Shown one piece after another: positions 18 to 28,923 of a stretch of 64,000 bases of DNA. The translations under genes and the position numbers were made by a program. The notes below the pieces were generated by a model. That model searched no databases. It was not told the DNA's origin and saw only the letters and a program-made list of their open reading frames with translations. Source of the DNA: a virus. The first letter of the stretch is position 1. Each line of letters begins with the position of its first letter. Location: the IMG/VR virus record IMGVR_UViG_3300011258_001374, positions 1 to 64,000 of that record. The stretch is one strand, 5' to 3'.

Positions 18-1925
18 GTGGGCATCGACGTTGAGACCAAGGACCCAGATATCCGTGCGATGGGCTGCGGCGCGCGACGCGAAGACACTAAGCTCGTCGG
101 GTACAGCTTTCAGATCGAGGGCGGCCCAGGATTCTACGTCCCGATGCGACACCAGGGCGGCGACAACGTCGAGTGCGAGCAGAAGGCGCTCGCCTATCTG
201 CAGGCTCAGGCTCGGTCGTTCACAGGCCAAATCGTCGGCTGCAACCTCGGCTACGACTGCGACTGGCTCGCGACGGAAGAGGTCGACTTCATCGAATCCG
301 GCTGTACGTGGCGCGACATCGGGGTCGCTGAGCCGCTCCTCGACGAGCTGCAATTCAATTACGGGCTCGAGGCCATCTCCCAGCGCTACGGGCGTGAGGG
401 CAAGGACGAGAGCCTGCTCAAGCAGGCCGCGGAGCACTACGGCGTTCACCCCAAGGCCGGGCTCTGGAAGCTCCCCGCCCGATTCGTGGGCCCGTACGGC
501 GTTGTCGATTCCAGTGAGCCTCTGGCCATTCTACGCCTCCAGGAGGCACGAATCGAAGAAGCGGGTCTCTGGGACATCTTCAACCTCGAATGCCAAGTCC
601 AGCCCATTCTGACGCTGATGCGCCGCCGTGGCGTGCGTATCGACGAGGACCGCCTGGCACAGGTTGAGGCGTGGGCCCGTGGGGAAGAAAACGCAGCTCT
701 GGAGGAAATTCACCGGCTGACCGGTGTTCGGATCGGAGTCGGCAAGGGCAAGGGAATCATGTCCCCGAAGGTGGTCGCCCCGGCGCTGGAGTCGATCGGC
801 GTGACCCTCAAAAAGACGTCGAAAGGCCAACCGAACATCGACAAGGACGTCCTGCAGGCCATCGATCACCCGGTAGCGGAGCGAATTCTCTGGGCTCGCA
901 AGACCAACAAGCTTCGAACGACGTTCGCCAAGTCGATCCGCGACCGCCTCGTGAACGGACGGATTCACGCGACGTTCAACCAGCTGAGACGCAACGAGTC
1001 GGACGACGAAGCGTCGATGGATGACGGTTCGGGAGCGCGCTACGGCCGCCTGTCCAGCGAACAACCGAACCTCCAGCAGCAGCCGGCTCGCGACGAGTTC
1101 GCGAAGATGTGGCGCGCGATCTATCTGCCCGAGGAGGGCATGACGTGGGGCTCGCTGGACTATTCGCAGCAGGAACCGCGGATGCTCATGCACTACGCGG
1201 AGAACGCGAAGCTCAGTCGAAACGCCCACGCCGCAGCGCACGGTGCCGCCGAGCAGTATCGCAACGATCGCACCACCGACAATCACGACATGGTCGCGAA
1301 GATGGCTGGCATCCAGCGTAAGGCCGCGAAAGAAATCTTCCTCGGAAAGATCTACGGCCTGGGCGGAGCGAAGCTGTGTCGGAAGTTGGGCCTCTCCACC
1401 GCGTGGGTCGTCTACGGCAAACGCTGGGCGGACACTCAGTACTTCGACATCTCTGATCGCATGAGCGCCCAGGCGTACGCAACCGAGTGCGGTGGTCGCC
1501 TGATGGAAGGCGCGGGCAAGGAAGGGCGTGAGCTACTGGCGACGTTCGACGAGAAGCTCCCCTTCATCAAGGAACTGGCGAAGCTCGCGAAGGAGACGGC
1601 CGACAAGCGCGGCTACGTCGTGACCATCCTGGGTCGACACTGCCACTTCCCAGTTGGGGTCAGCGGCAAATACGACTGGACGCAGAAGGCGCTCAACCGC
1701 GTCATCCAGGGATCGGCAGCCGATCAAACCAAGAAGGCGCTTGTTGACGTGCATAACGCGGGGCACTATCTGCAGCTCCAGGTACACGATGAACTAACAG
1801 GTAGCTTTCACGGTGAGGGCGATGCAGGTCATGCTGCTGAGATCATGGAACACTGCATCCCGCAGCTCACGGTGCCTTCGAAGGTGGACGTCGAGCTTGG
1901 GCCCAGCTGGGGAGAATCGATGTGA
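18..1925 (+). CDS. polA: DNA polymerase I family A, 3'-5' exo plus polymerase domains; 5'-partial, frame open to window start
   Basis: Pol A motif B RKAAKEIFLGKIYGLG and motif C LQVHDELT; N-terminal exo DxE motif (GIDVET); stop overlaps next ATG (ATGTGA). Confidence 0.9.
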   Translation: MGIDVETKDPDIRAMGCGARREDTKLVGYSFQIEGGPGFYVPMRHQGGDNVECEQKALAYLQAQARSFTGQIVGCNLGYDCDWLATEEVDFIESGCTWRDIGVAEPLLDELQFNYGLEAISQRYGREGKDESLLKQAAEHYGVHPKAGLWKLPARFVGPYGVVDSSEPLAILRLQEARIEEAGLWDIFNLECQVQPILTLMRRRGVRIDEDRLAQVEAWARGEENAALEEIHRLTGVRIGVGKGKGIMSPKVVAPALESIGVTLKKTSKGQPNIDKDVLQAIDHPVAERILWARKTNKLRTTFAKSIRDRLVNGRIHATFNQLRRNESDDEASMDDGSGARYGRLSSEQPNLQQQPARDEFAKMWRAIYLPEEGMTWGSLDYSQQEPRMLMHYAENAKLSRNAHAAAHGAAEQYRNDRTTDNHDMVAKMAGIQRKAAKEIFLGKIYGLGGAKLCRKLGLSTAWVVYGKRWADTQYFDISDRMSAQAYATECGGRLMEGAGKEGRELLATFDEKLPFIKELAKLAKETADKRGYVVTILGRHCHFPVGVSGKYDWTQKALNRVIQGSAADQTKKALVDVHNAGHYLQLQVHDELTGSFHGEGDAGHAAEIMEHCIPQLTVPSKVDVELGPSWGESM

Positions 1926-2158
1926 TAGACGAACCTGTTTGTTGGTGTGGAAAGCCTATGAGGGGTCATGGTCGAGACGACCATCGGGCAGAGCGTATGG
2001 AAGAGCGAACGGTCTTTCAGTGCGCCGCAAGGGGTTGCGACGGATGCACGGTCTGTCAGCCAGAGGTTGACGAGGGCGTGTGCCACTGCGGTACTGACAT
2101 GAAAAACCACCCGTTCGACAACCACCAGCCAGTCCGAATGGAACCTAACGATGGGTGA
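1922..2158 (+). CDS. small Cys/His-rich zinc-finger protein
   Basis: 78 aa with CWCG, CxxC, CHCG clusters; start overlaps polA stop, stop overlaps next start (translational coupling). Confidence 0.4.
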   Translation: MIDEPVCWCGKPMRGHGRDDHRAERMEERTVFQCAARGCDGCTVCQPEVDEGVCHCGTDMKNHPFDNHQPVRMEPNDG

Positions 2159-2567
2159 GTACAACTATCGAAGCACGGTGATGAAGGCCCTGAAGCGGTT
2201 GCGGTCCGATCCCCAGGCGGTTGAGAACTCAGCGAACCCCGGGTGCCCGGACGTCGAATGCCTGCGCGGCTGGATCGAGCTGAAGTACGCGTCTGCTTGG
2301 CCCAAGCAGACGGACACTGTCGTTCGGATCGATCACTATACACAGCAGCAGCGGAATTTCCTTCGGAGACGTTGGAACGCGGGAGGAGGTGCGTGGCTTT
2401 TACTACGGGTTGGATCACGAGGCAAGGTTGAAAACCTGCTCTTTGACGGTTTAACGGCGAATGAGTTTGTCGGTCGCGTTCCGCGCGCTACGCTCGTGGA
2501 CCTCGCAATAATGCATTCATATGGAAAGATCGCCAGCGCCGATCTAGACGAGATGCTCAGACGATGA
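2151..2567 (+). CDS. VRR-NUC domain nuclease (PD-(D/E)XK)
   Basis: GCPDVECLRGWIELK matches the VRR-NUC G.PD...E.K signature; 138 aa; coupled to flanking genes. Confidence 0.7.
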   Translation: MGEYNYRSTVMKALKRLRSDPQAVENSANPGCPDVECLRGWIELKYASAWPKQTDTVVRIDHYTQQQRNFLRRRWNAGGGAWLLLRVGSRGKVENLLFDGLTANEFVGRVPRATLVDLAIMHSYGKIASADLDEMLRR

Positions 2568-4915
2568 CCGATACCCCAGCAGCAATTGAATTCTTGAAGC
2601 AGTGGGAGCCTGAAGGTCCCTGGGTTCTGACTTCAATCGCTATCGACCGAAAGGCGATCACAACGGCCACCTTCGACCTAACAACGCTAGATGAGTGCGT
2701 TGAGTGGATCGATCTATACAACGGTGTTCGCAACATCTACTTCCATGTCAACCCGACCGTCGGCCCGATGGACAAGAAGGCCCAGCGGGAGGACATGGCA
2801 GAGATGAAGTGGTTACACGTCGACGTTGATCCGCGTGACGGCGCCGACCTCCAGGACGAGCGTGACCGCGCACTGGCGCAGCTGATGAATCCCCCAGGCA
2901 ACGTCCCGAAGCCCACGGTGATCGTGTTCTCCGGCGGCGGCTACCAGGGATTCTGGCGACTCCAGGATCCGTTCCAGATCGACGGTGACATCGGACTCGC
3001 GGAAACGGCCAAGCGGTGGAACTTGCAGCTTGAGCTGCTGTTCGGCGCGGACAATTGCCACAACGTTGACCGACTGATGCGGCTCGCTGGGACAACCAAC
3101 ATCCCCGACGCCAAAAAGAAAAAGAAGGGCCGAAGCGAAGAACTGGCCAAGGTAATTCTGTTCGATCACTCTCGCATCTACCCCATCTCTCAGTTCACTC
3201 CGGCCGCACCGACACAAGGCGGCGAGATGTTTGGCAGCTCCACACAAGAGGTGGAGATCAGCGGAAACATTCCTCGCGTCGCCACGATGGAAGAGCTGGA
3301 TGAGTGGGACGTGCCCGACCGCGTCAAAGTCATCATCGTGCAAGGCCGTCATCCAGACGAGGGACCCAAGGACGACGACTCGCGATCGAGCTGGCTGTTC
3401 GACTGCGTTTGTAATCTGGTTCGCTGCAACGTGCCTGACGAGGTTGTCTTCTCCCTGATCACGGATCCAGACTTCGGCATCAGTGAGTCGGTGCTCGACA
3501 AGGGTGCCAACGTTGAGAGCTACGCGAAGCGACAGATTGGGAAGGCAAAAGAATTCGCCATCGATCCGAAGCTCGCCGAGATGAACGATCGCTATGCGGT
3601 CATCGAAAACTTCGGGGGCAAGTGCCGCGTTGTTGAGGAGCAGCTCGATCCAATCCTGAAACGCTCACGCCTCACCTCCCTGAGCTTTGGCGATTTCAAG
3701 AATGCCCACATGCACAAGAGCGTTCCGGTCGGTGAGGACAAGGACGGAAACCCGAAGTTCATGCCCCTGGGCGACTGGTGGACGAAACATCGGGAGCGCC
3801 GACAGTTCAAGCGAGTCGTCTTCGTTCCGAACCAGGAGGTTCCCGACGCATACAACCTCTGGCGCGGATTCGCCTGCGAAGCTCGCCCGGGCAAGTGGGA
3901 CAAGCTCGAAGCTCACATCCGGGACAACATTTGTCGGGGTAACGATGGCTTGTTCAAGTACCTGATGGGCTGGATGGCTCGAATGATTCAGTTCCCAGGT
4001 GAGCCTGGACAGACAGCGATCGTTATGCGTGGCGAGCAGGGAACGGGAAAGTCGTTTCTCGCGAAGCAGCTGGGTGCCCTGCTGGGCCGACACTATATGC
4101 AGGTAGGTAACTCCAGCCAGCTGGTCGGCAACTTCAACGCCCATCTGCGCGACTGCGTCTTCTTGTTCGCGGACGAAGCTTTCTACGCTGGGGACAAGAA
4201 GCACGAAGGTGTGCTCAAGATGATCGTGACTGAAGACACGATGTCGATCGAGGCCAAGGGAGTTGATGTCGAGGCTGCGACTAACTGTCTGCATCTCATG
4301 ATGGCATCGAATCATGAATGGGTAGTGCCTGCGCACAGCCGAAGTGAACGCCGATTTCTAGTTCTCGATGTGAGCGAGAGCCACATGCAGGACACGACCT
4401 ACTTCGGAGCGATCCAAGATCAGATGAATAACGGTGGCCGAGAGGGATTTCTCTATTCCCTCCTGGACTACGATCTGTCAGATTTCGACGTCCGCACAGT
4501 GCCCAGGACGAAGGCGCTGGAAGAGCAGCAGTTCCAGGGCTACGACGTTCAGGAAGAGTGGTGGTACACGAAGCTATGCGACGCGGTCATGCTCAACGAA
4601 GACCCGAGCAACGTGCCGTGGCCTAACGTAGTCCGAACCGATGAACTGTACAATGACTACCTCGAATACACCAAGCGAAACAGCTTTCGAAATCCCAAGA
4701 ATAAGGTTCATTTCGGTCGCTTCATCACCAAGATCGCCAACCCCAAGAAAGGGCAGTCCTCTATCTCCACCGGTCGCCGCAAGGTCTATCAGTTTCCCGA
4801 CGTCGAAGAGTGTCGCCGCCGCTGGATCGAGATCTACAAGCAAGGTGAGTGGGTTGGTGAAGAGCCGGAAGAAACGATCGAGACGCCCGTCCTGGACCAA
4901 GAAGAGATCTTCTGA
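2564..4915 (+). CDS. bifunctional primase-polymerase (AEP) / SF3 helicase, D5/P4 primase-helicase type
   Basis: AEP motifs WLHVDVDP and SGGGYQGFW; C-terminal Walker A GEQGTGKSF and Walker B VFLFADEA; 783 aa. Confidence 0.85.
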   Translation: MTDTPAAIEFLKQWEPEGPWVLTSIAIDRKAITTATFDLTTLDECVEWIDLYNGVRNIYFHVNPTVGPMDKKAQREDMAEMKWLHVDVDPRDGADLQDERDRALAQLMNPPGNVPKPTVIVFSGGGYQGFWRLQDPFQIDGDIGLAETAKRWNLQLELLFGADNCHNVDRLMRLAGTTNIPDAKKKKKGRSEELAKVILFDHSRIYPISQFTPAAPTQGGEMFGSSTQEVEISGNIPRVATMEELDEWDVPDRVKVIIVQGRHPDEGPKDDDSRSSWLFDCVCNLVRCNVPDEVVFSLITDPDFGISESVLDKGANVESYAKRQIGKAKEFAIDPKLAEMNDRYAVIENFGGKCRVVEEQLDPILKRSRLTSLSFGDFKNAHMHKSVPVGEDKDGNPKFMPLGDWWTKHRERRQFKRVVFVPNQEVPDAYNLWRGFACEARPGKWDKLEAHIRDNICRGNDGLFKYLMGWMARMIQFPGEPGQTAIVMRGEQGTGKSFLAKQLGALLGRHYMQVGNSSQLVGNFNAHLRDCVFLFADEAFYAGDKKHEGVLKMIVTEDTMSIEAKGVDVEAATNCLHLMMASNHEWVVPAHSRSERRFLVLDVSESHMQDTTYFGAIQDQMNNGGREGFLYSLLDYDLSDFDVRTVPRTKALEEQQFQGYDVQEEWWYTKLCDAVMLNEDPSNVPWPNVVRTDELYNDYLEYTKRNSFRNPKNKVHFGRFITKIANPKKGQSSISTGRRKVYQFPDVEECRRRWIEIYKQGEWVGEEPEETIETPVLDQEEIF

Positions 4916-6156: not shown

Positions 6157-6232
6157 TGGTAGGCCCCCTCGGAATCGAACCGAGAACCCCAGGATTAAGA
6201 ATCCCGTGCTCTACCGATTGAGCTAAGGGCCT
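6157..6232 (-). tRNA. tRNA-Lys(CTT), canonical 76 nt with encoded CCA
   Basis: Reverse complement AGGCCCTTAGCTCAATCGGTAGAGCACGGGATTCTTAATCCTGGGGTTCTCGGTTCGATTCCGAGGGGGCCTACCA folds as a standard cloverleaf, anticodon CTT. Confidence 0.8.
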
Positions 6233-21162: not shown

Positions 21163-21276
21163 GCATCTCTCCTGGGGCCGTATGGGCCTCGACCTTAAAT
21201 CAACACGCGCGGCAGAGCAAGGCCCCTAGCAAATAAAATGTGGTCGCGAATACACAGGTCTCAAGCCAGTCGAGTG

Positions 21277-21744
21277 TCAAACCTCAAGTCCCTTGTCTTT
21301 CTCTTTATACTTCAGGTGTTTACGTATTATTTCTGCCGGCCCCCCGTTGGCGCGAATGAAGGCCCTGTACTTGCTCACGGAGCATCCCGCGATGAATGTC
21401 GAGACGGGCACAGAGCCCAGGGCGGACTCGCGGCCATCCAGAGACTTGACGCACAGCTTCACCGACAAGAAAGCGATCGATCTGAGGACAGGATGTCGAT
21501 CGGCGCTGGCCATGCCTCGCTTCATTCGACTAACGGCCGCGTGGGTGTCGCGTATGCACTTGATGCCTTCGGTTTTGGTTGGGGACAGCTGGACGCAAGC
21601 CGCTTCCCATTGCTCCTTGAGGACGTCCAGATCCTCAGAGAATATGAGGGTCGCGTGGACCGTACCCGGGAGGGTAAGGGCCATCACAGCGATGATCAGG
21701 AGTCGTTTGAACATGGCGTGTAGTTCTCCATCCAGCTGTCCCAT
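21277..21744 (-). CDS. secreted hypothetical protein
   Basis: Signal peptide MFKRLLIIAVMALTLPGTVHA; 155 aa. Confidence 0.4.
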   Translation of the reverse strand: MGQLDGELHAMFKRLLIIAVMALTLPGTVHATLIFSEDLDVLKEQWEAACVQLSPTKTEGIKCIRDTHAAVSRMKRGMASADRHPVLRSIAFLSVKLCVKSLDGRESALGSVPVSTFIAGCSVSKYRAFIRANGGPAEIIRKHLKYKEKDKGLEV

Positions 21745-22094
21745 CCAAAATGATTTCCTAGCGGTCCGTCCGATAGGATGTTGTCTAGCAGTTCGATGTG
21801 GTCGTTGATCTCGTGCGTTAGTTTACGGGTCGCGTCGACCAAGTGCTTCGGCTCATCAAGGTCGTCGCAGGCTCGATCGATATCTTCCGACAGGCACCAG
21901 TTTACGGTCTGGTCGTCTTCCATCCGAACGAAGAACGATGTTCCCATGCCACTAACAAATCGGAATTGGTACTTGTCGCAGAAGGGAATCACGTACTTGT
22001 TTCGCAGAACGTTGGCCGCCTTCTTGGCCTCCGAGTCAACCGCCTCGTGCATCGCCTCCATCATCTCGTCGTCTTTTTCAAACAGCATCTTCAT
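21696..22094 (-). CDS. hypothetical acidic protein
   Basis: Start taken at MKMLFEKDD; 132 aa. Confidence 0.3.
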   Translation of the reverse strand: MKMLFEKDDEMMEAMHEAVDSEAKKAANVLRNKYVIPFCDKYQFRFVSGMGTSFFVRMEDDQTVNWCLSEDIDRACDDLDEPKHLVDATRKLTHEINDHIELLDNILSDGPLGNHFGWDSWMENYTPCSNDS

Positions 22095-22305
22095 CCTTCC
22101 GTCGGTCAGGTCCGGGCCGCTTGGTGTCGCGTCGATCGAGGCCGCGTGAGACCATCTCCCGAATGATCTCCGGGTCTGTTGCCCAAGGGCGCAGGCAGAT
22201 CGGGTGGTCGCGTTCAACCTGCTCCTTCAAGTCTCGAGCATTGATTTCGATCACGCTGCGCTCCGGTGCGCGCGGGCCGCCTGGGTCTGCCAGCTGAGTC
22301 GCCAA
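22078..22305 (-). CDS. hypothetical protein
   Basis: 75 aa ORF. Confidence 0.2.
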   Translation of the reverse strand: MATQLADPGGPRAPERSVIEINARDLKEQVERDHPICLRPWATDPEIIREMVSRGLDRRDTKRPGPDRRKDEDAV

Positions 22306-22478
22306 AGTTGTGCCATGCGCGCTGCGAACTCAGAGCCCGCACCTTCGGGGGTTAGGTACTTGATCTCGTATTGCCAGATCAGGTCGAGCCCGGGGACGCA
22401 TGGGGCTCCGCGCTTGAACGCATCGGCACCTGCATCTCTCATCCGGTCAGCTGCTGGGTCGGCCTTTAAAATGGGCAT
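22251..22478 (-). CDS. hypothetical protein
   Basis: 75 aa ORF. Confidence 0.2.
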   Translation of the reverse strand: MPILKADPAADRMRDAGADAFKRGAPCVPGLDLIWQYEIKYLTPEGAGSEFAARMAQLWRLSWQTQAARAHRSAA

Positions 22479-22480
22479 GG

Positions 22481-22738
22481 CTACAGTTCTCCAACGGCTA
22501 GAGAGTAGGTGTGGGTTAGGCCGCGTGGCGTGCGGATCGGGAAATCCTCTTCGACCATGAACTTGATGAACTCGAATCGCTGTTCAGGCGACATTTTTCG
22601 GTAGGCGTTCTTGCCGTCTGACATCCGGCGTGGGGATCCATCCGGGACGGTCTTGAGCGGTTTTCCGTTTCGGACGTTAGCGGCCTTGCGCGCCGCCCGT
22701 TCGTCCTGCTGCTTTCCGTTTGAGTAGCTATCGCCCAT
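22481..22738 (-). CDS. hypothetical protein
   Basis: 85 aa ORF directly downstream of the HicA-like gene; no HicB features. Confidence 0.3.
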   Translation of the reverse strand: MGDSYSNGKQQDERAARKAANVRNGKPLKTVPDGSPRRMSDGKNAYRKMSPEQRFEFIKFMVEEDFPIRTPRGLTHTYSLAVGEL

Positions 22739-22803
22739 GTCTTGGGCCTCCGTTTCGTTTGTTAGTAACCTATCGTCGCGTGTGGTGTCGAACTTTAGGC
22801 TAA

Positions 22804-23025
22804 TTATCCGATTTTTTCTTTGACCTGCCGAAGCGCCTGAGCAGGCAGCTGACCGGCATTTGTTGGGCTACCTGCCATAGGCAACTTCGTTGTCTTTCCA
22901 TGGCGTGAGACGATTAGCTTCGGGTGCTTTGCTCCGCTATGTCGTACCTCTACCGAATAGCCTGCCCGCTTGAGCGCCTTTACGATCGCCCGCTGATGCT
23001 TCTGCAGCCGGGGTGCCGCGCTCAT
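22804..23025 (-). CDS. YcfA/HicA-like small protein (mRNA-interferase fold candidate)
   Basis: AIVKALKRAGYSVEVRHSGAKHPKLIVSRHGKTTKLP parallels the HicA pattern (K..GW..VR.KGSH...HP...V..H); start overlaps the methyltransferase stop by 4 nt. Confidence 0.4.
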   Translation of the reverse strand: MSAAPRLQKHQRAIVKALKRAGYSVEVRHSGAKHPKLIVSRHGKTTKLPMAGSPTNAGQLPAQALRQVKEKIG

Positions 23026-24005
23026 GCAGCCATCACGATCTGCTCGACGATGCCCTTGGCCATCTGCACATCAATTGCATTCCCGATCATCTTCCCCGCG
23101 AGGCCCTTCGCCTTCGGGAGGACATACGAATCCGGGAAGCTCATCGATCGCGCCATTTCACGGGCGCTCAGCGTCCGCATCCGGTCGCCGTCGATGATGT
23201 ACCATTGACCGATCGACTTCGTGGTTGACGTTGGGAAAAAACCGTCAAGTGGCCTGCCTGACGACTCTGAGACGTTCGCCCAGAGGCAGCGCTCGCCGGC
23301 CTCGTTCTGGGCCTTTTTAACCCGGATACGCATCCGGGCCGACTTGGAATCGATCGGCTTCCAGTTGTGGTGCGGGGCCGCGTCGTCCTCAAGACATTCG
23401 GCGATCGTTCGGGCCGCATGGCCATACGTCGGAGAGAGGACTGGGGCCGCGTGGCCCATGCGTGCGGTGATGATCATTCTGTCGCGCTCCTGCGCGCCGC
23501 CGTACGCGGTCGCCCGGATCACCTGGGTGTGGGTCTGGTACCCGAAGGCCTTGAGCATGCCGTGATAGGCCTCGAACGCGTCCCATCGCATCATGTCCAC
23601 CACGTTCTCGATCGCGATGAACTCGGGCCTAAGGGTGTCGGCGGCGGATAACACAGCCATAGCCGTGTTGCGGTCTCGCTGCGCCTTTTCTTGGGCCGCC
23701 TGGGCCGATGGCCTAACGTTGCCGCCGGTGCCCCTTCGCGCGGGTTGTCCGCACTGAGAATATCCCTGGCACGCTGGACTCGCCAGAAGTATCCGGGTAG
23801 CCGGGACTTGCGTCCAGTCTGCCTCCTTGAGATCTTGTCGGACGTGGGCCGTGTGGGGGTGGTTGGCCGCGTGGCAGTCAACGGCCTCCTGCCAATGGTT
23901 CGCAGCCCAGAGGACGGGAACGCCTGCCATGTTCGCGCCGGTACTGAATCCGCCGGCACCTGCAAAGAGATCGATTGCGTCAAAGTTGCTCATTGTTTGC
24001 TCCAT
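23022..24005 (-). CDS. DNA (cytosine-5)-methyltransferase
   Basis: Motif I DLFAGAGGFS, motif IV ASPACQGYS (PCQ), motif VI IENVVDMM (ENV), motif VIII AQERDRMII, motif X MIGNAIDV; 327 aa. Confidence 0.9.
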   Translation of the reverse strand: MEQTMSNFDAIDLFAGAGGFSTGANMAGVPVLWAANHWQEAVDCHAANHPHTAHVRQDLKEADWTQVPATRILLASPACQGYSQCGQPARRGTGGNVRPSAQAAQEKAQRDRNTAMAVLSAADTLRPEFIAIENVVDMMRWDAFEAYHGMLKAFGYQTHTQVIRATAYGGAQERDRMIITARMGHAAPVLSPTYGHAARTIAECLEDDAAPHHNWKPIDSKSARMRIRVKKAQNEAGERCLWANVSESSGRPLDGFFPTSTTKSIGQWYIIDGDRMRTLSAREMARSMSFPDSYVLPKAKGLAGKMIGNAIDVQMAKGIVEQIVMAA

Positions 24006-24011
24006 TGTTAT

Positions 24012-24503
24012 TTATACGGTCTTGATTCGTCCACCACATCCTCGGTGGGTGTACTGTTTTGAATTCGGCAATCGTCGTCGACGTTCAATCACGTAATCGC
24101 AACGCTCGCACTCTGCAACTATCTTTAAGGGCCGCTTGGGGGGCCGCGTGATGCCGATAGACTGGGCCGCCTGGGCCGTGGCACATCGGTTGCCGCTATG
24201 TCCGAGTGCTCGGGCGTGTGCTTTCCACACCCAGTTGTGTCCGGAGGGGATTCCGGCCCAGTGGTGGGCGATTTCATGCGCAAGCGTGTCGCGCATTTGA
24301 TCCGGATCGGCAAAAACGCACTTGTGTACTTCAATCCATCGCTCGCCCGTGTTCCTATTCGAGCACGCCATGCCTAACGTAGTGCGTAGCCTAGTGTTTA
24401 CGTAAACGGGAATCGCGAGGATATCCTCGGGAATGTTGGCGAAATTTTCAACGCAGAACCGAATGCAATTGCTTTCGACTGTTCCTATGGGACGCTTGGA
24501 CAT
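24012..24503 (-). CDS. SprT-like zinc metalloprotease with C-terminal zinc ribbon
   Basis: HEIAHH (HExxH) plus downstream His; C-terminal CERC...RGCGGR ribbon; start taken at MSKRPIGTV (164 aa). Confidence 0.55.
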   Translation of the reverse strand: MSKRPIGTVESNCIRFCVENFANIPEDILAIPVYVNTRLRTTLGMACSNRNTGERWIEVHKCVFADPDQMRDTLAHEIAHHWAGIPSGHNWVWKAHARALGHSGNRCATAQAAQSIGITRPPKRPLKIVAECERCDYVIERRRRLPNSKQYTHRGCGGRIKTV

Positions 24504-24565
24504 AGTGGTTTTCTCCGTTTTTTTTTCATACGTATCGGATAGGGCCGCGTGGGCTTTAGTCTTTT
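24504..24565 (-). promoter_or_regulatory. intergenic leader of the SprT-methyltransferase-HicA operon with two direct repeats CCCACGCGGCCCT
   Basis: On the minus strand GGCCCCCACGCGGCCCTAGAAAAGACTAAAGCCCACGCGGCCCTATCC lies immediately upstream of the SprT ATG. Confidence 0.35.
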
Positions 24566-24832
24566 CTAGGGCCGCGTGGGGGCCGTGCGGGCCTCGCGTG
24601 CCGCCTGCAGGTCCCATGCAACTAACTCCGTTTGACCTACTTGCTTTCGATATACACCAACGCTGCACACTGCACCGTAAATGCCTTCTGACCGCAGGTT
24701 CATTACCGCCAACTTGCGCGTCGGTGCGAGCACGCGGTAGACCCGCGAATGATCGGCAACATTGACGCACCCTTCAGGTTGCGGGTCGATTGCCATCGTT
24801 ATGCGCCATTCTTTTACCTTGGGAATGCTCAT
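24566..24832 (-). CDS. hypothetical protein
   Basis: 88 aa from MSIPKVKEW; ATG 1 nt after the upstream gene stop. Confidence 0.25.
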   Translation of the reverse strand: MSIPKVKEWRITMAIDPQPEGCVNVADHSRVYRVLAPTRKLAVMNLRSEGIYGAVCSVGVYRKQVGQTELVAWDLQAAREARTAPTRP

Positions 24833-24833
24833 C

Positions 24834-25604
24834 CTATGCCGCCTTTCGGTTAGCGTCGCGCGCGATCTTTCGACCGAGTCCGCCGGGGCCGTGGTCAATA
24901 ATCACTCGGCCACCCGTCGCGCCGTTGCATTTAATGGGACACTCGGCGCACGTTAGGCGCTTGCCAGCTTCCGCGCTCGCAGGGCATTGACTCTCACCCT
25001 TAACCCGTTCGCGTGCATCCTCGCGGCCATCGGCTACGCGGAAGGTCGCCCAGAGGAGCGCTAGCGCCTCATCGCGTTCGGCGATCGAGTCGACCGAGGC
25101 CATACAGATTCCGCGCAACGCTGCGCCGGTGTCGCGCCATCGGTGGGTGTACCCCGTGTGTTCCGAAGCGGACGCGGCGAGCGCGTGCCAGATTACAGCG
25201 TCAACCGCTCCCGGATCGCCCCAAGCGCCCATGCGAAGCTTTAGGCCTCGGACGTATGCGACTGCGCCGCGTAGGTCGGTCGGGCGATATGCGCCGCGCT
25301 TGACTGCATCGAAAACGATCCGCGGACCGTGGGCTAAATTGACATAGCAGCGCGCCGCGCCTGATTCCTTTGCAAGCGCTGGCCGGTGCGGGCAATCGCC
25401 ACAGACCGAAACATCGGCGCCGCTTTTCGCGGAGTCACCCGGGGCAACGTCGCGCGGGATAATATAGGTCTGAATCATCGCGCCGGTTTTGGCGTTCGCC
25501 TTGCCGTGCGCGGATTTCATCGCGTCTTTTCGTCCCCGCAAAATCACATAGACGGGGGAGCCGTCGATTAGGCTAGTGCTTTCGAAGTAGATTCCATCGG
25601 CCAT
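24834..25604 (-). CDS. Cys-rich (probable metal-binding) hypothetical protein
   Basis: 256 aa; clusters VCGDCPH...CYVN and CPASAEAGKRLTCAECPIKC (7 Cys); RBS AAGGAG. Confidence 0.45.
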   Translation of the reverse strand: MADGIYFESTSLIDGSPVYVILRGRKDAMKSAHGKANAKTGAMIQTYIIPRDVAPGDSAKSGADVSVCGDCPHRPALAKESGAARCYVNLAHGPRIVFDAVKRGAYRPTDLRGAVAYVRGLKLRMGAWGDPGAVDAVIWHALAASASEHTGYTHRWRDTGAALRGICMASVDSIAERDEALALLWATFRVADGREDARERVKGESQCPASAEAGKRLTCAECPIKCNGATGGRVIIDHGPGGLGRKIARDANRKAA

Positions 25605-25832: not shown

Positions 25833-25854
25833 AAAAACCCCCAACCCGGGGAGC
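25833..25854 (-). terminator. possible intrinsic terminator after the 25904-26455 gene
   Basis: Minus strand GCTCCCCGGGTTGGGGGTTTTT: short GC stem followed by a U5 tract. Confidence 0.3.
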
Positions 25855-26632: not shown

Positions 26633-26921
26633 GAGAAAAAGACTTGCACACGTCTTGCGAGTGGTGCGCGTATACGGTGGCGTCCGCGTACGCTTGCGCG
26701 CGGTTGTAGTCGCCGCGATACCATCCCCACTCAGACCATTCGAAACCATCGCCTAGCGCAATCTCGTGCGCGCACGACTCGCAAACCGTCAAGGGATAGA
26801 AACGGATCGAAAGGCTATCAGGCGCCAGAACGCCGGCGATTCGATTAGTGGGGCTCGCGGTCCGCGTTTCTAGAATCAGCTGCTCTAGTCGTTGCATATC
26901 GTTTGCTCCCTTATCGTCCAC
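26616..26921 (-). CDS. hypothetical protein
   Basis: 101 aa ORF. Confidence 0.3.
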   Translation of the reverse strand: MDDKGANDMQRLEQLILETRTASPTNRIAGVLAPDSLSIRFYPLTVCESCAHEIALGDGFEWSEWGWYRGDYNRAQAYADATVYAHHSQDVCKSFSLDSDE

Positions 26922-27031: not shown

Positions 27032-27742
27032 TTAGTCTAATTTGTCGCCGTAGGTCGGATTTTCGTACAACTCGAGAGTTGCCGCAAACTTGCCGGCTTC
27101 GGTGTCAATGTCGACGATGAATCGGCCGCTGCCCATATCTTGCGCCTCCGTTGCCGCTTCTTTCGAGGCTTCGGCGATGCGTTCGAATAACGTTCGCGCT
27201 TCCCAATGGTTGCCGTTGAATCGTTCATACGCGTTTGCGTATCCTTCGCACAACAAATGCACAAACCATTCTCGGCCGCGAGCGAAACTAGCGAGAGAGT
27301 CGCGCTCCTCTGAATCGTCTCTATGTTCCGCGATGGCTTGCCGAATTCCAGCGCGCACGATATCCCGAAACAGAGGGGCCATACCATGCGGGTCGGTTTC
27401 ATCCGTGGGCGATTTGTCGCCGATCGCGTCCCCGGCATAAGCGAACGCGCGATAGAGTTCGATGAAATCGCTAGCTATGTTTTCGCTCGGGTCCGAGTTG
27501 CCGCGATTTTGTCCCGAAAACCACCCCGATTCCCCGCGAATGAAGTAGACCGCGCCTAGCGCTCGCGTTTCGTTTTCTAGGTCCCCATCTGATTCGTGGG
27601 CTTCATGCTCTAGCGCGTCGTGCGCGACTCCGTCACCGATAAAGGCGTAAGGGTCCTCGACTCCGTCAAGCCATGCCGGGAGCCATCCATCCTCGCCCGT
27701 GTTTTCGTCCGTGCCCCAAGTGAATTCGCGTTGGTATCGCAT
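27032..27742 (-). CDS. highly acidic hypothetical protein (DNA-mimic candidate)
   Basis: 236 aa, very D/E-rich throughout; preceded by the conserved element and RBS. Confidence 0.4.
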   Translation of the reverse strand: MRYQREFTWGTDENTGEDGWLPAWLDGVEDPYAFIGDGVAHDALEHEAHESDGDLENETRALGAVYFIRGESGWFSGQNRGNSDPSENIASDFIELYRAFAYAGDAIGDKSPTDETDPHGMAPLFRDIVRAGIRQAIAEHRDDSEERDSLASFARGREWFVHLLCEGYANAYERFNGNHWEARTLFERIAEASKEAATEAQDMGSGRFIVDIDTEAGKFAATLELYENPTYGDKLD

Positions 27743-27790
27743 TTCGTTTGCTCCTCTGGGCTTGATTGCCCTTCTAACGGCCTAACCCCG
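27743..27790 (-). promoter_or_regulatory. conserved promoter-like element, copy C
   Basis: Minus strand GGGCAATCAAGCCCAGAGGAGCAAACGAAATG immediately upstream of gene 27742. Confidence 0.4.
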
Positions 27791-28331: not shown

Positions 28332-28923
28332 GGATTCGGGCTCCCTTGGGGGTGTTTTTACATGAAACGTGAATGACGCTGAGTCATAAAACGGCTTTCC
28401 GCTTTCCTAGCTCGCGTTCGATTGAATAGGTGTGCAGGGACCATGCCAGAGCGAGTTGCGCTCGAAATGCACGGTCGATGCCTGAAATGCGTTGGGGATA
28501 CACTACAGAGTGGGGTGGGTTGCGCTTTGGGCGGTGATTCCCTCCGGATGGTGCCGCAAATTGCGGCTCGAGTGACAAATTACGTCTTTTCCCTCTGGGG
28601 TTACCGGGTAAGGCGCGCTAGGGGAGTATTTAGGCGATCCGCTAAGTGTCCGAGATACAAGGGGAATCGGGCAAAAACACGGGTAATCGGGTGAACCGGT
28701 AAGGTTTTAATTCGGTGGTGTGGGGAGGTGGGGCGGCCGGCGGCGGTTGGTGTTTTACTCTATTACTCTCTTTTAAATTTACTAGAGTTAATATAGTTAG
28801 TTGATAACCTCAATGAATTCGACGGGTTGGGTGGTTGGGTAGTGACTCTGGTAAATGGTTAGCGGATCAACATTTGCTTTTGAGTTGCTTGTCTAATCTC
28901 CCGCCTGGGCGTAGTGTCGCGGG
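28332..28923. promoter_or_regulatory. divergent early/late control region
   Basis: About 590 bp non-coding between leftward early genes and rightward terS; perfect palindrome CCGCAAATTGCGG near 28553-28565 and an AT-rich tract at 28750-28840. Confidence 0.45.

Follow-up and report, generated by a model that had tools for sequence, protein, structure and literature searches.

Direct-repeat arrays overlapping promoters are exemplified by the omega-repressor heptads of pSM19035 and the RepA iterons of P1 and F. Meanwhile, Chi, KOPS and the one-orientation EcoP15I sites of T7 are polar genome signals. To our knowledge, no phage member of the SprT family has a demonstrated DNA-dependent protease activity. 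In eukaryotic systems, proteases of the SPRTN family degrade crosslinks between C5 methyltransferases and DNA, for which M.HpaII (PMC6375733) and DNMT1 (PMC13112021) have served as model crosslinks. In addition, actinophages commonly encode SprT-like proteins whether or not they have methylases (PMC12363180; bioRxiv 10.1101/2025.05.26.655371), and a C5-methyltransferase homologue is paired with a CmoA homologue in carboxymethyl-cytosine hypermodification (PMC12783734).

Here, we analyzed a stretch of 64,000 nt (hereafter the window; positions 1 to 64,000 of IMG/VR record IMGVR_UViG_3300011258_001374), which makes up most of the ~70.7-kb genome of an uncultured tailed phage with genes for terminase, portal, tape measure, primase, and thymidylate synthase. 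A DNA similarity search against INPHARED found no related phage, and its sole match was 149 nt of a methylase gene. Related loci are referred to below by L numbers. The best explanation for the locus as a whole, to which we give a probability of about 55%, is a compact transcription unit together with an oriented motif that serves as the regulator site of a class of promoters.

SprT-like protease and C5 methyltransferase

The window contains, on the minus strand, a SprT-like ORF, a C5 methyltransferase, and a small overlapping ORF, which is the gene set and order that an earlier note on this DNA had described. The first ORF (24012..24503) encodes a putative zinc metalloprotease of 163 aa, and its start was chosen by a GGAG 8 nt upstream and by homologues opening with MSKRPIGT or MAKRPIGT. 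The protein matched Pfam PF10263 above the cut-off (37.5 vs. 25.6 bits), and the homologue in L033 scored 41.1 bits. It carries HEIAH, a third histidine (His89), and a C-terminal CxxC...HxxC. The zinc-site residues H76, E77, H80, and H89 were invariant in 10 homologues, in which the C-terminal motif was likewise kept. These results agree with the SprT-family assignment made previously, and the protein has the features of a minigluzincin/Spartan-like fold. Its substrate may be a DNA-bound or crosslinked protein, or alternatively a host protein.

The second ORF (23022..23993, minus strand) encodes 323 aa, or 327 aa from an alternative ATG at 24005. We found that it is a complete C5 cytosine DNA methyltransferase, as had been claimed. 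PF00145 matched it over its full length (E = 1.4e-39; 136.9 bits vs. a cut-off of 22; residues 9–324 of 324 profile positions), TIGR00675 (dcm) scored 112.4 vs. 100.65, and PADLOC labeled it MTase_II. The methylase motifs were all found, namely I (FAGAGG), IV (SPACQG, with the catalytic Cys), VI (ENV), VIII (QxRxR), and X (GNA). In motif IV, Ala stands before the Cys, where the relatives have Cys and the canonical residue is Pro, and the Cys-Gln is kept. An insertion of 13 residues follows motif IV and encodes one copy of the oriented motif described below.

No cognate endonuclease was found beside the methylase, and the neighboring ORFs gave no matches to nuclease or defence families. Because of this absence of nuclease-family matches in the neighbors, we regard the enzyme as an orphan, Type II-like methyltransferase and not as part of a complete restriction-modification system. 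A search for a characterized close relative found none, and the best solved-structure matches cover the catalytic core only. Judging from its family membership, the enzyme most likely methylates phage DNA and would protect it from host restriction. A role in carboxymethyl-cytosine hypermodification was also considered and dropped, since no CmoA-type link was found here. Palindrome statistics showed that GAGCTC, CACGTG, and GTGCAC are strongly avoided, an observation that is uninformative on the methylase target.

Promoter-like elements and the transcription unit

Two promoter-like elements of the minus strand, P5 (24531..24559) and P6 (22769..22798), enclose the three tightly packed ORFs, and the compact operon layout suggested before holds. 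P5 consists of CTAAAG-N17-GATACG and then TATGAA, and P6, which precedes an 85-aa ORF, contains CTAAAG, the −35-like TCGACA, GATAGG, and TACTAA. The window contained six elements of this kind, where 0.3 would be expected. All belong to the minus strand (28049 to 22798), and every one of them precedes an ORF. The same element was found in relatives, with five copies in L001, nine in L005/L124, five in L125, three in L122, and two in L120. Its −10-like hexamers are TACATA, TACTAA, and TATGAA. The −35-like sequence is TCGACA/TTGACA in P4, P6, L120, and L001, and CCCACG in P5. A generic sigma-70-type scan (−35/−10 with 16–18 nt spacing) gave no match at P5.

No terminator-like sites were found on the minus strand inside the three-gene unit. 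Because of this and of the tight packing between two promoter-like elements, co-transcription of the three genes is plausible. As far as can be read from the sequence, P5 is likely the start of the unit, and P6 marks its predicted downstream end. We suggest that a compact transcription unit in the leftward early/middle arm of the phage would run from P5 through the SprT-like gene, the orphan C5 methyltransferase, and the 73-aa HicA/dsRBD-like ORF, and would be closed by P6. The three genes themselves are ordinary phage equipment and form an early-gene cassette.

Upstream of the unit lies a gene (24834..25604, minus strand) for a GP88-like Cys-rich protein of 256 aa (phrog_2554, E = 9e-55). Its relatives in L005, L119, L121, L123, and L125 share 65–70% identity with it, and a scan of a genome collection with GP88 matched only two tiny MAG contigs. 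Among the relatives, SprT and the methylase usually have the GP88-like gene as their upstream neighbor.

SprT and the methylase in related phages

The earlier note had suggested that the two genes are a functional pair, in which SprT would serve the methylase as its own repair partner by cleaving enzyme molecules that are covalently trapped on the phage DNA. The SPRTN-family precedent with C5-methyltransferase–DNA crosslinks (PMC6375733, PMC13112021) speaks for this idea, and the two genes are indeed neighbors in the window, L001, L119, and L121, and more loosely in L125. The neighborhood is shared by several related lineages on no fewer than two phage backbones, and a GP88-like gene usually precedes it. 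It holds across backbones that share little else, and also in L121, where the methylase allele is only 43% identical. Furthermore, in Mycobacterium phage Newrala a split C5-like methylase lies ~0.5–1 kb from a SprT-like gene. However, SprT is kept in L005/L124 with no methylase within ~8.6 kb downstream, and in the short contig L120 there is none in the 567 nt after SprT. Conversely, in L123 two methylases come straight after GP88 with no SprT between, and of 79 other viral loci that carry methylase relatives, none had SprT within 6 kb. The partner gene is also lacking beside the SprT relatives of L029–L031 and Bacillus phage Nate and at the methylase locus of Rando14. In L001, the two genes have a promoter-like element and a 60-aa ORF between them, and the actinophage distribution of SprT-like proteins mentioned above is independent of methylases.

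Adjacency was kept in some of the relatives and was lost or not seen in others. The link between SprT and the methylase is a recurrent neighborhood that is not obligate in either direction. Because the pairing is not obligatory either way, the crosslink partnership remains an idea, and we consider it unlikely. SprT would seem to be a stable member of a recurrent GP88–SprT–methylase neighborhood.

The 73-aa and 85-aa ORFs

The third ORF of the unit (22804..23025, minus strand) encodes a basic, lineage-specific protein of 73 aa with a predicted alpha-beta-beta-beta-alpha topology (dsRBD/HicA-like). Its start overlaps the methylase stop in an ATGA (ATG at 23025–23023, TGA at 23024–23022). It had been called HicA-like, and its size, basic character, and predicted topology fit this call. 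However, HicA_toxin (PF07927) scored 14.2 bits, below the cut-off of 27 (E = 0.049), and the structural matches to HicA-like folds were weak. The 73-aa ORF is best described as a near-orphan whose HicA signals, in profile and fold prediction, are borderline. Ankyrin repeats were the only solved-structure profile match of its family and were judged spurious; large multi-repeat matches probably reflect the same ankyrin-type similarity.

It had further been suggested that this ORF could be a toxin of an addiction module tied to the methylase. The arguments for a HicA-type toxin, with either the methylase or the 85-aa ORF as its partner in an addiction or abortive module, are that HicA_toxin is the best Pfam match in two of the four members of the family (best E = 1.1e-4), that the predicted topology is alpha-beta3-alpha, that a His invariant in the four homologues would fall at the expected catalytic His when aligned to HicA, and that the ORF is translationally coupled to the methylase. 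Family searches found no HicB partner adjacent to it. The 85-aa ORF (22481..22738, minus strand), which has P6 in front as its own promoter-like element, had no family matches and is not a HicB, as the earlier note had recognized; its partial counterpart in L001 is the C-terminal portion of a 143-aa ORF. Because the 73-aa ORF is missing from L001 and L005, both of which span that position, a methylase-linked addiction module is unlikely, and we regard the toxin explanation as improbable. The ORF may be a recent, lineage-specific addition to the unit.

An oriented motif in the leader and the genes

The leader contains two exact 14-nt copies of CCCACGCGGCCCTA on the minus strand (24567–24580 and 24540–24553), whose starts are 27 nt apart. 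The first of them overlaps the stop codon of an upstream 88-aa ORF, and the second occupies the −35/spacer slot of P5. These direct repeats had been noticed before, and we found them exact and conserved in homologous leaders. They are two copies of an oriented 10–12-nt motif, sCCA(M)(R)CGGCC(C).

In the zone 21176..24580, there were 14 copies of CCANNCGGCC on the minus strand, all in the sense orientation (full form sCCA[C/A][G/A]CGGCCC). They are distributed over the leader, the SprT and methylase genes, four ORFs further downstream, and a single intergenic site, and none is in the 73-aa ORF. The whole window has 15 motif matches (3.3 expected), 14 of which lie on the sense strand at 21176–24579, within 3.4 kb. 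In an unbiased clustering scan, the 8-mers of the motif were the most clustered of the whole window. In addition, GGCCGCGTGG occurs six times (0.46 expected) in one orientation from 21535 to 24579. The previous count of at least five copies in 23.4–24.6 kb was roughly right, because four exact copies and near-variants at ~23375 and ~24141 lie there; the cluster extends to 21.2 kb.

The orientation of the motif was the same in relatives, where the sense/antisense counts were 17/0, 20/0, 18/1, and 5/0; L124 and L125 had 20/0 and 17/0. The intragenic copies were compared with synonymous-codon shuffles, giving 11 vs. 1.3, 10 vs. 1.6, 10 vs. 0.8, and 14 vs. 1.9 copies. None of 1000 shuffles reached the observed number, and the excess was 6–13 fold. 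The four lineages, whose proteins differ by 35–50%, show about the same degree of enrichment, and the positions of the copies turn over. We conclude that selection maintains the motif at synonymous sites in four or more diverged lineages.

The zone begins exactly at the first predicted motif-bearing promoter, which is in the GP88 leader in L001, L005, and L125 and in the SprT leader in the window; in L119 it begins just upstream of the GP88 leader. The motif is missing from the first 3.7–4.5 kb of the arm. After the promoters, it litters 3–6 kb in five related phages, methylase or not, at a density of ~1 per 130–250 nt.

A possible explanation is that the intragenic copies are functionless and arose from promoter-proximal arrays through slippage, gene conversion, or codon-pair bias. 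Leaders carry tandem 9-nt arrays of the motif unit, similar 9–10-nt arrays arise independently in unrelated viral contigs, and most intragenic copies are in the Ala-Ala frame GCG-GCC. However, each of the three reading frames contains copies, and the independent enrichment in four lineages with turnover of positions is hard to obtain in this way. The zone also has a sharp boundary, since Ala-Ala inside it is almost always GCG-GCC and upstream of it never is (0/32). This origin of the copies has, in our view, a low probability.

A scan of viral contigs for two copies of the motif gave 16 loci, of which one was related (the L001 phage). None of the 15 other loci shares a gene with the window phage, and the idea that the motif is a widespread element was dropped. 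The scan was rejected as evidence for it because the other loci are unrelated and those inspected (L015, L019, and L026) are 9- or 10-nt tandem arrays. A literature search for the motif strings gave no match.

Possible functions of the motif

In relatives, the predicted motif-bearing promoters consist of an upstream motif array, an A-tract, CTAAAG, the motif, CCGATAAG, and TACATA. P5 resembles this class in having the motif in place of the −35 region. The distance from the motif to the −10-like hexamer differs by ~5 nt between P5 and L120, which is unusual for a fixed-geometry activator. A combined promoter and motif scan with CTHAAGCCCACGCGGCC gave only unrelated chance matches, and no DNA-binding domain was recognizable in the conserved early proteins.

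Our best guess is that the motif is a regulator-binding site. We infer that a sequence-specific factor would bind it and control the motif-bearing promoter class, and the co-oriented intragenic copies downstream may belong to the same system as the promoter copies. Either the motif is read in the direction of transcription, or its single orientation may simply avoid GC-rich hairpins in transcripts. A promoter regulator alone does not account for the density of copies inside coding sequence.

The repeats had been taken as a possible operator or methylase target. A private operator does not agree with a motif that is zone-wide, strand-specific, and linked to a promoter class. If the motif were or contained the recognition sequence of the adjacent methylase, the cluster could be a methylation-controlled switch. 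The GGCC and CGCG cores are typical C5-methylase targets, and in the window the motif is densest in and around the methylase gene. However, L005/L124 and L120 are rich in the motif with no methylase in the stretches given above, and L121, which has SprT and the methylase, has no motif; neither has L123. The motif is also asymmetric and one-stranded over kilobases, whereas the usual C5 targets are palindromic, and in relatives the zone begins upstream of GP88, far from the methylase. We therefore consider the motif as methylase target very improbable.

Alternatively, the motif could act in the transcript or the non-template strand, as a site for an RNA-binding, antitermination, or mRNA-stability factor of middle-gene transcripts. 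The motif is restricted to the sense strand, and its zone begins at a promoter and runs with transcription. Furthermore, the reverse complement GGCCGC is depleted in the same genes (L001, 1 vs. 5.2 expected; L005, 0 vs. 3.7), which would keep the motif single-stranded in RNA. However, folding of the leader RNA was not significant (z = 0.23), an Rfam search found no RNA element, and the best-conserved copies lie in or upstream of the core promoter, where they would be transcribed only by read-through. An action in the transcript is, on balance, rather unlikely.

The extreme strand bias and the copies in all frames and in intergenic DNA would also suit a polar DNA signal, Chi-like or translocase-orienting, read by an enzyme that tracks from a genome end. 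Such a signal could, for example, halt RecBCD/AddAB when these enzymes enter at the packaging end beside the early arm. For entry from the terminase side (28.9–30 kb), the G-rich complement GGGCCG..TGG would be on the 3'-ended strand. By analogy with lambda, a G-rich strand 3'-ended relative to the entering enzyme is the canonical Chi geometry. However, the motif is limited to a 3–6-kb zone whose beginning is a promoter rather than a DNA end, and the first kilobases of the arm are free of it. Its density far exceeds known Chi densities, and two of its internal positions are variable. A Chi-like signal is one contiguous oligomer found genome-wide and oriented to replication or to the ends, whereas the motif occupies 21.2–24.6 kb of the 64-kb window. 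A polar signal is thus improbable as well. A G-quadruplex on the G-rich strand was considered too; the tandem arrays of relatives fit G3N6, but dispersed single copies cannot form one, and the candidate was rejected.

We therefore return to the regulator site of a promoter class as the preferred reading. A stronger form of it, which we offer as a speculation that is more doubtful than probable, is that phage middle genes have a hitherto undescribed cis-acting system in the motif zone, read by a transcription-tracking phage or host factor and controlling GP88, SprT, and the C5 methylase as a functional DNA-modification or maintenance module. Such a system would consist of an asymmetric motif in promoters, leaders, and synonymous sites over several kilobases, on the sense strand only. 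The tracking factor might activate, antiterminate, stabilize, or later silence the whole block.

The three-gene part of this study mainly corrects an over-reading, as SprT and the methylase are recurrent neighbors but no obligate pair, and HicA is a weak assignment for the 73-aa ORF. Should SprT turn out to process trapped methylase, it would be the first Spartan-like crosslink protease of a prokaryotic virus with a defined client. The motif is worth following for its synonymous-site selection, its one-strandedness, and its onset at a specific promoter class. If it is a regulatory code of middle genes, it would offer a manageable case in which selection at the nucleotide level shapes phage coding sequence, and a handle for finding the regulator.

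Comparison with known systems

Compared with the SprT/Spartan/Wss1 minigluzincins (PF10263), the phage protein has only 163 aa and is without the regulatory domains of eukaryotic Spartan. It shares ~27–34% identity with annotated phage SprT-like proteins, which include those of actinobacteriophages. Meanwhile, the methylase is similar to orphan phage C5 methyltransferases (PF00145; phrog_116), such as those of Acidovorax phage Acica and Pseudomonas phage vB_Pae-SS2019XI (35–42% identity). It has in common with them the catalytic motifs, the lack of an adjacent endonuclease, and an early-gene position. However, it contains SPACQG instead of SPCCQG or the canonical PCQ, and the 13-residue insertion is an additional difference.

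The 73-aa ORF resembles HicA of type II HicAB systems (PF07927) in size, basic character, a predicted dsRBD-like alpha-beta-beta-beta-alpha topology, and a conserved His. It differs in its score below the cut-off, the lack of HicB, and the weak structural matches. In addition, it is located in a phage early operon, whereas HicA is found in chromosomal toxin–antitoxin loci.

The motif shares extreme strand bias with Chi, KOPS, and the one-orientation EcoP15I sites of T7, and it is enriched at synonymous sites and in all frames. However, those signals are genome-wide, whereas the motif is zone-limited, promoter-bounded, much denser, and internally variable. Finally, it is like direct-repeat operator and iteron arrays in being composed of short co-oriented repeats, tandem or closely spaced, upstream of and inside a core promoter. 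It is different from these arrays in that it runs on densely through 3–6 kb of downstream coding sequence, on one strand only.

An oriented motif zone

The direct repeats in the leader of the SprT-like gene lead into a motif zone that is oriented, bounded by promoters and maintained by selection. Within the leader, CCCACGCGGCCCTA is present twice without mismatch, at a distance of 27 nt, and the repeats are kept in the homologous leaders of related viral loci, with three copies in L001, one variant in L005, and one copy each inside the promoter element of L120 and L125. Their absence from such leaders, which the earlier note had named as a refutation, was therefore not observed. Across lineages, the motif consensus is sCCA[C/A][G/A]CGGCC(C). 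The window has 15 occurrences of CCANNCGGCC (3.3 expected), 14 of them on the minus strand within 21176-24579, and an unbiased scan showed that the motif 8-mers are the most locally clustered in the 64 kb.

Sense and antisense counts in the related loci were 17/0 in L001, 20/0 in both L005 and L124, 18/1 in L119, 5/0 in L120, and 17/0 in L125; they were 0/0 in L121, L122, L123, and L029. A polarity of this kind bears on two other readings, that the motif is an RNA or non-template-strand element, which we regard as unlikely, and that it is a Chi-like polar DNA signal, which is less likely still. In addition, the copies occupy intergenic DNA and all three reading frames. Compared with synonymous-codon shuffles in four lineages, the intragenic motif was in 6-13 fold excess (11 observed vs 1.3, 10 vs 1.6, 10 vs 0.8, and 14 vs 1.9), and 0 of 1000 shuffles reached the observed number. 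Furthermore, Ala-Ala in the zone is nearly always encoded by GCG-GCC (8/9, 5/5, and 5/5 in examples from L001) vs 0/32 in the genes upstream of the zone, and the reverse orientation of the motif is depleted. Beside these counts, a non-functional by-product of slippage or conversion seems a poor explanation.

The onset of the zone is sharp. It coincides with the first motif-carrying promoter. L001, L005, and L125 have this promoter in the GP88 leader, and the motif of L119 first appears in a short ORF just upstream of GP88. Zone-start leaders of relatives include 3-6 motif copies, of which some form 9-nt tandems; next come an A-tract, CTAAAG, the motif, and CCGATAAG. The GP88 leader of the window is without the motif, and its zone begins at the SprT leader with the same architecture in reduced form. 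The GP88-like orthologues of the window (24834-25604) and L005 (4393-5145) are 69% identical; GCGGCC occurs 0 times in the former (0/4 Ala-Ala pairs) and 6 times in the latter (6/7 pairs). From this contrast, the zone boundary has therefore moved between lineages.

The earlier note had suggested a methyltransferase target or an operator. The first is rejected on a two-way dissociation, as L005/L124 and L120 have the motif without an adjacent methylase (over ~8.6 kb and 567 nt downstream, respectively) and L121 and L123 have a methylase without the motif. The second, an operator private to the cassette operon, is rejected because the repeats are part of the larger zone. We propose, with a probability of about 0.4, that the motif is the binding site of a putative factor governing an activator- or repressor-dependent class of promoters. 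In the promoter-like element at 24559, a motif copy lies in the slot where other element copies have a TCGACA-like -35. The intragenic copies would either be read directionally with transcription or share one orientation because this prevents GC-rich hairpins. The analysis yielded no candidate binder, and no domain was recognised in the conserved early proteins.

Near-identical tandem arrays also occur in unrelated viral contigs (L015:7130-7420, L026:1430-1740, and L019:90-245). These arrays are long, with 9-nt (GCGGCCCNC) or 10-nt (CCCACGCGGC) units, and the contigs have no genes in common with the window phage. The 9-nt arrays would encode Ala-Ala-X repeats on the opposite strand.

Promoter-like elements and genome organization

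The window covers most of the genome of an uncultured tailed phage. Its rightward structural arm includes the terminase, portal, head-morphogenesis, and tape-measure genes, and a primase is also rightward (2.6-4.9 kb). Meanwhile, a long leftward arm from about 28.3 to 6 kb includes small early genes, an Rv2179c-like exonuclease, and a thymidylate synthase, with a single tRNA-Lys (anticodon CTT, minus strand, 6157-6232) at its far end. A divergent intergenic region of 592 nt (28332-28923) separates the early (minus) arm from the late (plus) arm; its core is AT-rich (TTATCAACTAACTATATTAACTCTAGTAAATTTAAAAGAG...), and it could hold divergent promoters, an origin, or a packaging site. No nucleotide-level relative was found among deposited phages; a 70.7-kb Logan contig has an identical SprT-region protein and a 12.6-kb locus with the gene order of the window. 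In addition, three palindromes are completely avoided across the window (GAGCTC, 0 vs 28.7 expected; CACGTG, 0 vs 10.9; GTGCAC, 0 vs 7.5), which points to host restriction systems of the SacI, PmlI, and ApaLI types as a likely selective pressure.

The element CT[ACT]AAG-N14-19-GATA[ACG][GT] occurs six times in the window, vs 0.3 expected by chance. All six copies (minus strand; 28049, 27035, 26613, 25664, 24559, and 22798) are followed by a TAnnAT-like hexamer and lie shortly upstream of the ribosome-binding site and start codon of an early ORF. On the sense strand of relatives, there are 5 copies in L001, 9 in L005/L124, 5 in L125, 3 in L122, and 2 in L120. Several copies have a near-consensus -35 (TCGACA, TTGACA, CTGACA) after CTNAAG, and several have a TACATA/TACTAA-like hexamer after GATAAG. 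Because of these hexamers, we read the conserved element as the putative early promoter of the phage group. As further observations, many early genes share the ribosome-binding context GGAGCAAAC(N3-5)ATG (e.g. 23985-24006, 26891-26912, and 27739-27754), which is also seen in relatives, and a terminator-like hairpin (GCTCCCCGGGTTGGGGG then TTTTTGCGTTT; minus strand, 25837-25854) lies in the 300-nt gap between a 183-aa ORF and the GP88-like gene.

The element at 24559 is ahead of SprT and that at 22798 is ahead of an 85-aa ORF, with no terminator-like site on the minus strand between them. Thus, SprT, the methylase, and a 73-aa ORF plausibly form one transcription unit in the window phage, as had been claimed. 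However, this layout is not conserved, since a promoter-like element and a 60-aa ORF separate SprT from the methylase in L001.

Genes of the cassette

The earlier description of the layout was accurate: the SprT-like, methylase, and 73-aa ORFs and the leader repeats were confirmed, all on the minus strand. The SprT-like ORF (163 aa; Pfam SprT-like, 37.5 bits vs a cut-off of 25.6) is best started at 24503, as judged from a GGAG located 8 nt upstream and from homologues with the same first residues. H76-E77-x-x-H80, H89, and the C-terminal C132/C135/H153/C156 cluster are conserved in 10 homologues. The C5 methylase (23022-23993) aligns with PF00145 over the full length (E 1.4e-39) with every catalytic motif present, and it is an orphan since there is no nuclease nearby. 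Its motif IV (23771-23788) is SPACQG, vs SPCCQG in relatives and canonical PCQ. Compared with the Acidovorax and Pseudomonas phage enzymes, a 13-residue insertion follows motif IV in both the window and L001. A 34-nt direct repeat (76% identical) is found in the methylase (23692-23725) and SprT (24163-24196) coding sequences. It encodes GN..(S/T)AQAAQ in both and includes the motif variant CCCAGGCGGCCC, which has exactly three occurrences in the window, the third at 22274.

The start ATG of the 73-aa ORF (22804-23025) overlaps the methylase TGA. In a word-indexed search of 5.8 billion proteins, the ORF itself was the sole match; an exhaustive search of 1.84 billion cluster representatives gave three small homologues together with repeat proteins, and the latter probably reflect ankyrin-like similarity. 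The claim that it is HicA-like agrees with the predicted helix-strand-strand-strand-helix topology (AlphaFold, pLDDT 77.5) and with HicA_toxin as the best Pfam match for 2/4 family members, but the call is weak because the scores are below the cut-off (E 0.049 in the window and 1.1e-4 in the best-scoring member). Neither L001 nor L005 has the ORF, and it is free of motif copies, while the neighbouring genes have them. It is probably a small basic nucleic-acid-binding protein of dsRBD/HicA-like fold and a recent acquisition. As had been noted, the locus has no HicB. The downstream 85-aa ORF is preceded by a promoter-like element of its own, and part of it is conserved in L001, where the 73-aa ORF is missing. 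That the 73-aa ORF is a toxin or addiction component is unlikely.

The SprT-methylase neighbourhood

SprT homologues were traced to contigs, and further loci were fetched with GP88-like and methylase alignments; the lineages compared were those whose GP88-like gene is close (65-70% identity) or whose gene order is clearly syntenic with the window. The window order is GP88, an 88-aa ORF, SprT, and methylase. In L001, a different GP88-family gene, a 144-aa ORF, SprT, the 60-aa ORF, and a methylase (79% identical) follow one another. GP88, SprT, and methylase are consecutive in L119 (78%) and L121 (43%, start overlapping), and in L125, GP88 and then SprT precede 1.7 kb of small ORFs and the methylase (78%). 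L005/L124 have GP88 and SprT with no methylase within ~8.6 kb downstream, and L120 has a GP88-like gene tail and SprT with none in the following 567 nt. L123 has GP88 and two methylases (41% and 58%) with no SprT between; these tandem C5 genes (L123:1581-3471) come immediately after the GP88-like gene of this GC-rich relative. L121, L123, and L144 have neither the promoter element nor the motif, and in L144, with 8.4 kb upstream of GP88, GP88 is the only gene common with the window phage. Thus, these loci appear to have a different backbone.

Profile searches detected neither SprT nor methylase in 60 more distant GP88 relatives. No SprT lies within 6 kb of the methylase in 79 viral loci with relatives at 36-44%, no methylase lies near the SprT relatives of L029-L031 and Bacillus phage Nate, and the Mycobacterium phage Rando14 methylase has no SprT or GP88 neighbour. 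The proposed adjacency therefore recurs (the window, L001, L119, L121, and, more loosely, L125), survives allele replacement, and is more than a single synteny accident. The neighbourhood is real but facultative, and each gene persists without the other. The suggestion that SprT is the crosslink-repair partner of the methylase is biologically reasonable, because trapped C5 methylases are degraded by SPRTN in eukaryotic systems (PMC6375733); we nevertheless consider this function rather improbable.

Comparison with known systems

SprT-like proteins are common in actinophages, without an assigned role (PMC12363180; bioRxiv 10.1101/2025.05.26.655371). Outside the GP88 group, only Newrala-type mycobacteriophages have a C5-like methylase ~0.5-1 kb from a SprT-like gene. 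In Newrala, the ORFs gp88 and gp87 (1446-3450) both bear a DNA methylase annotation and seem to represent one split gene; over 186 aa, gp88 is 25% identical to the N-terminal half of the window C5 enzyme. The SprT-like protease gp83 lies 0.5-1 kb downstream of the pair, which adjoins a ParB-like nuclease domain gene. The gene cassette belongs to well-known kinds. For the motif zone, a literature search found no described counterpart, and it is this zone, rather than the crosslink-repair pairing, that is worth experiment.
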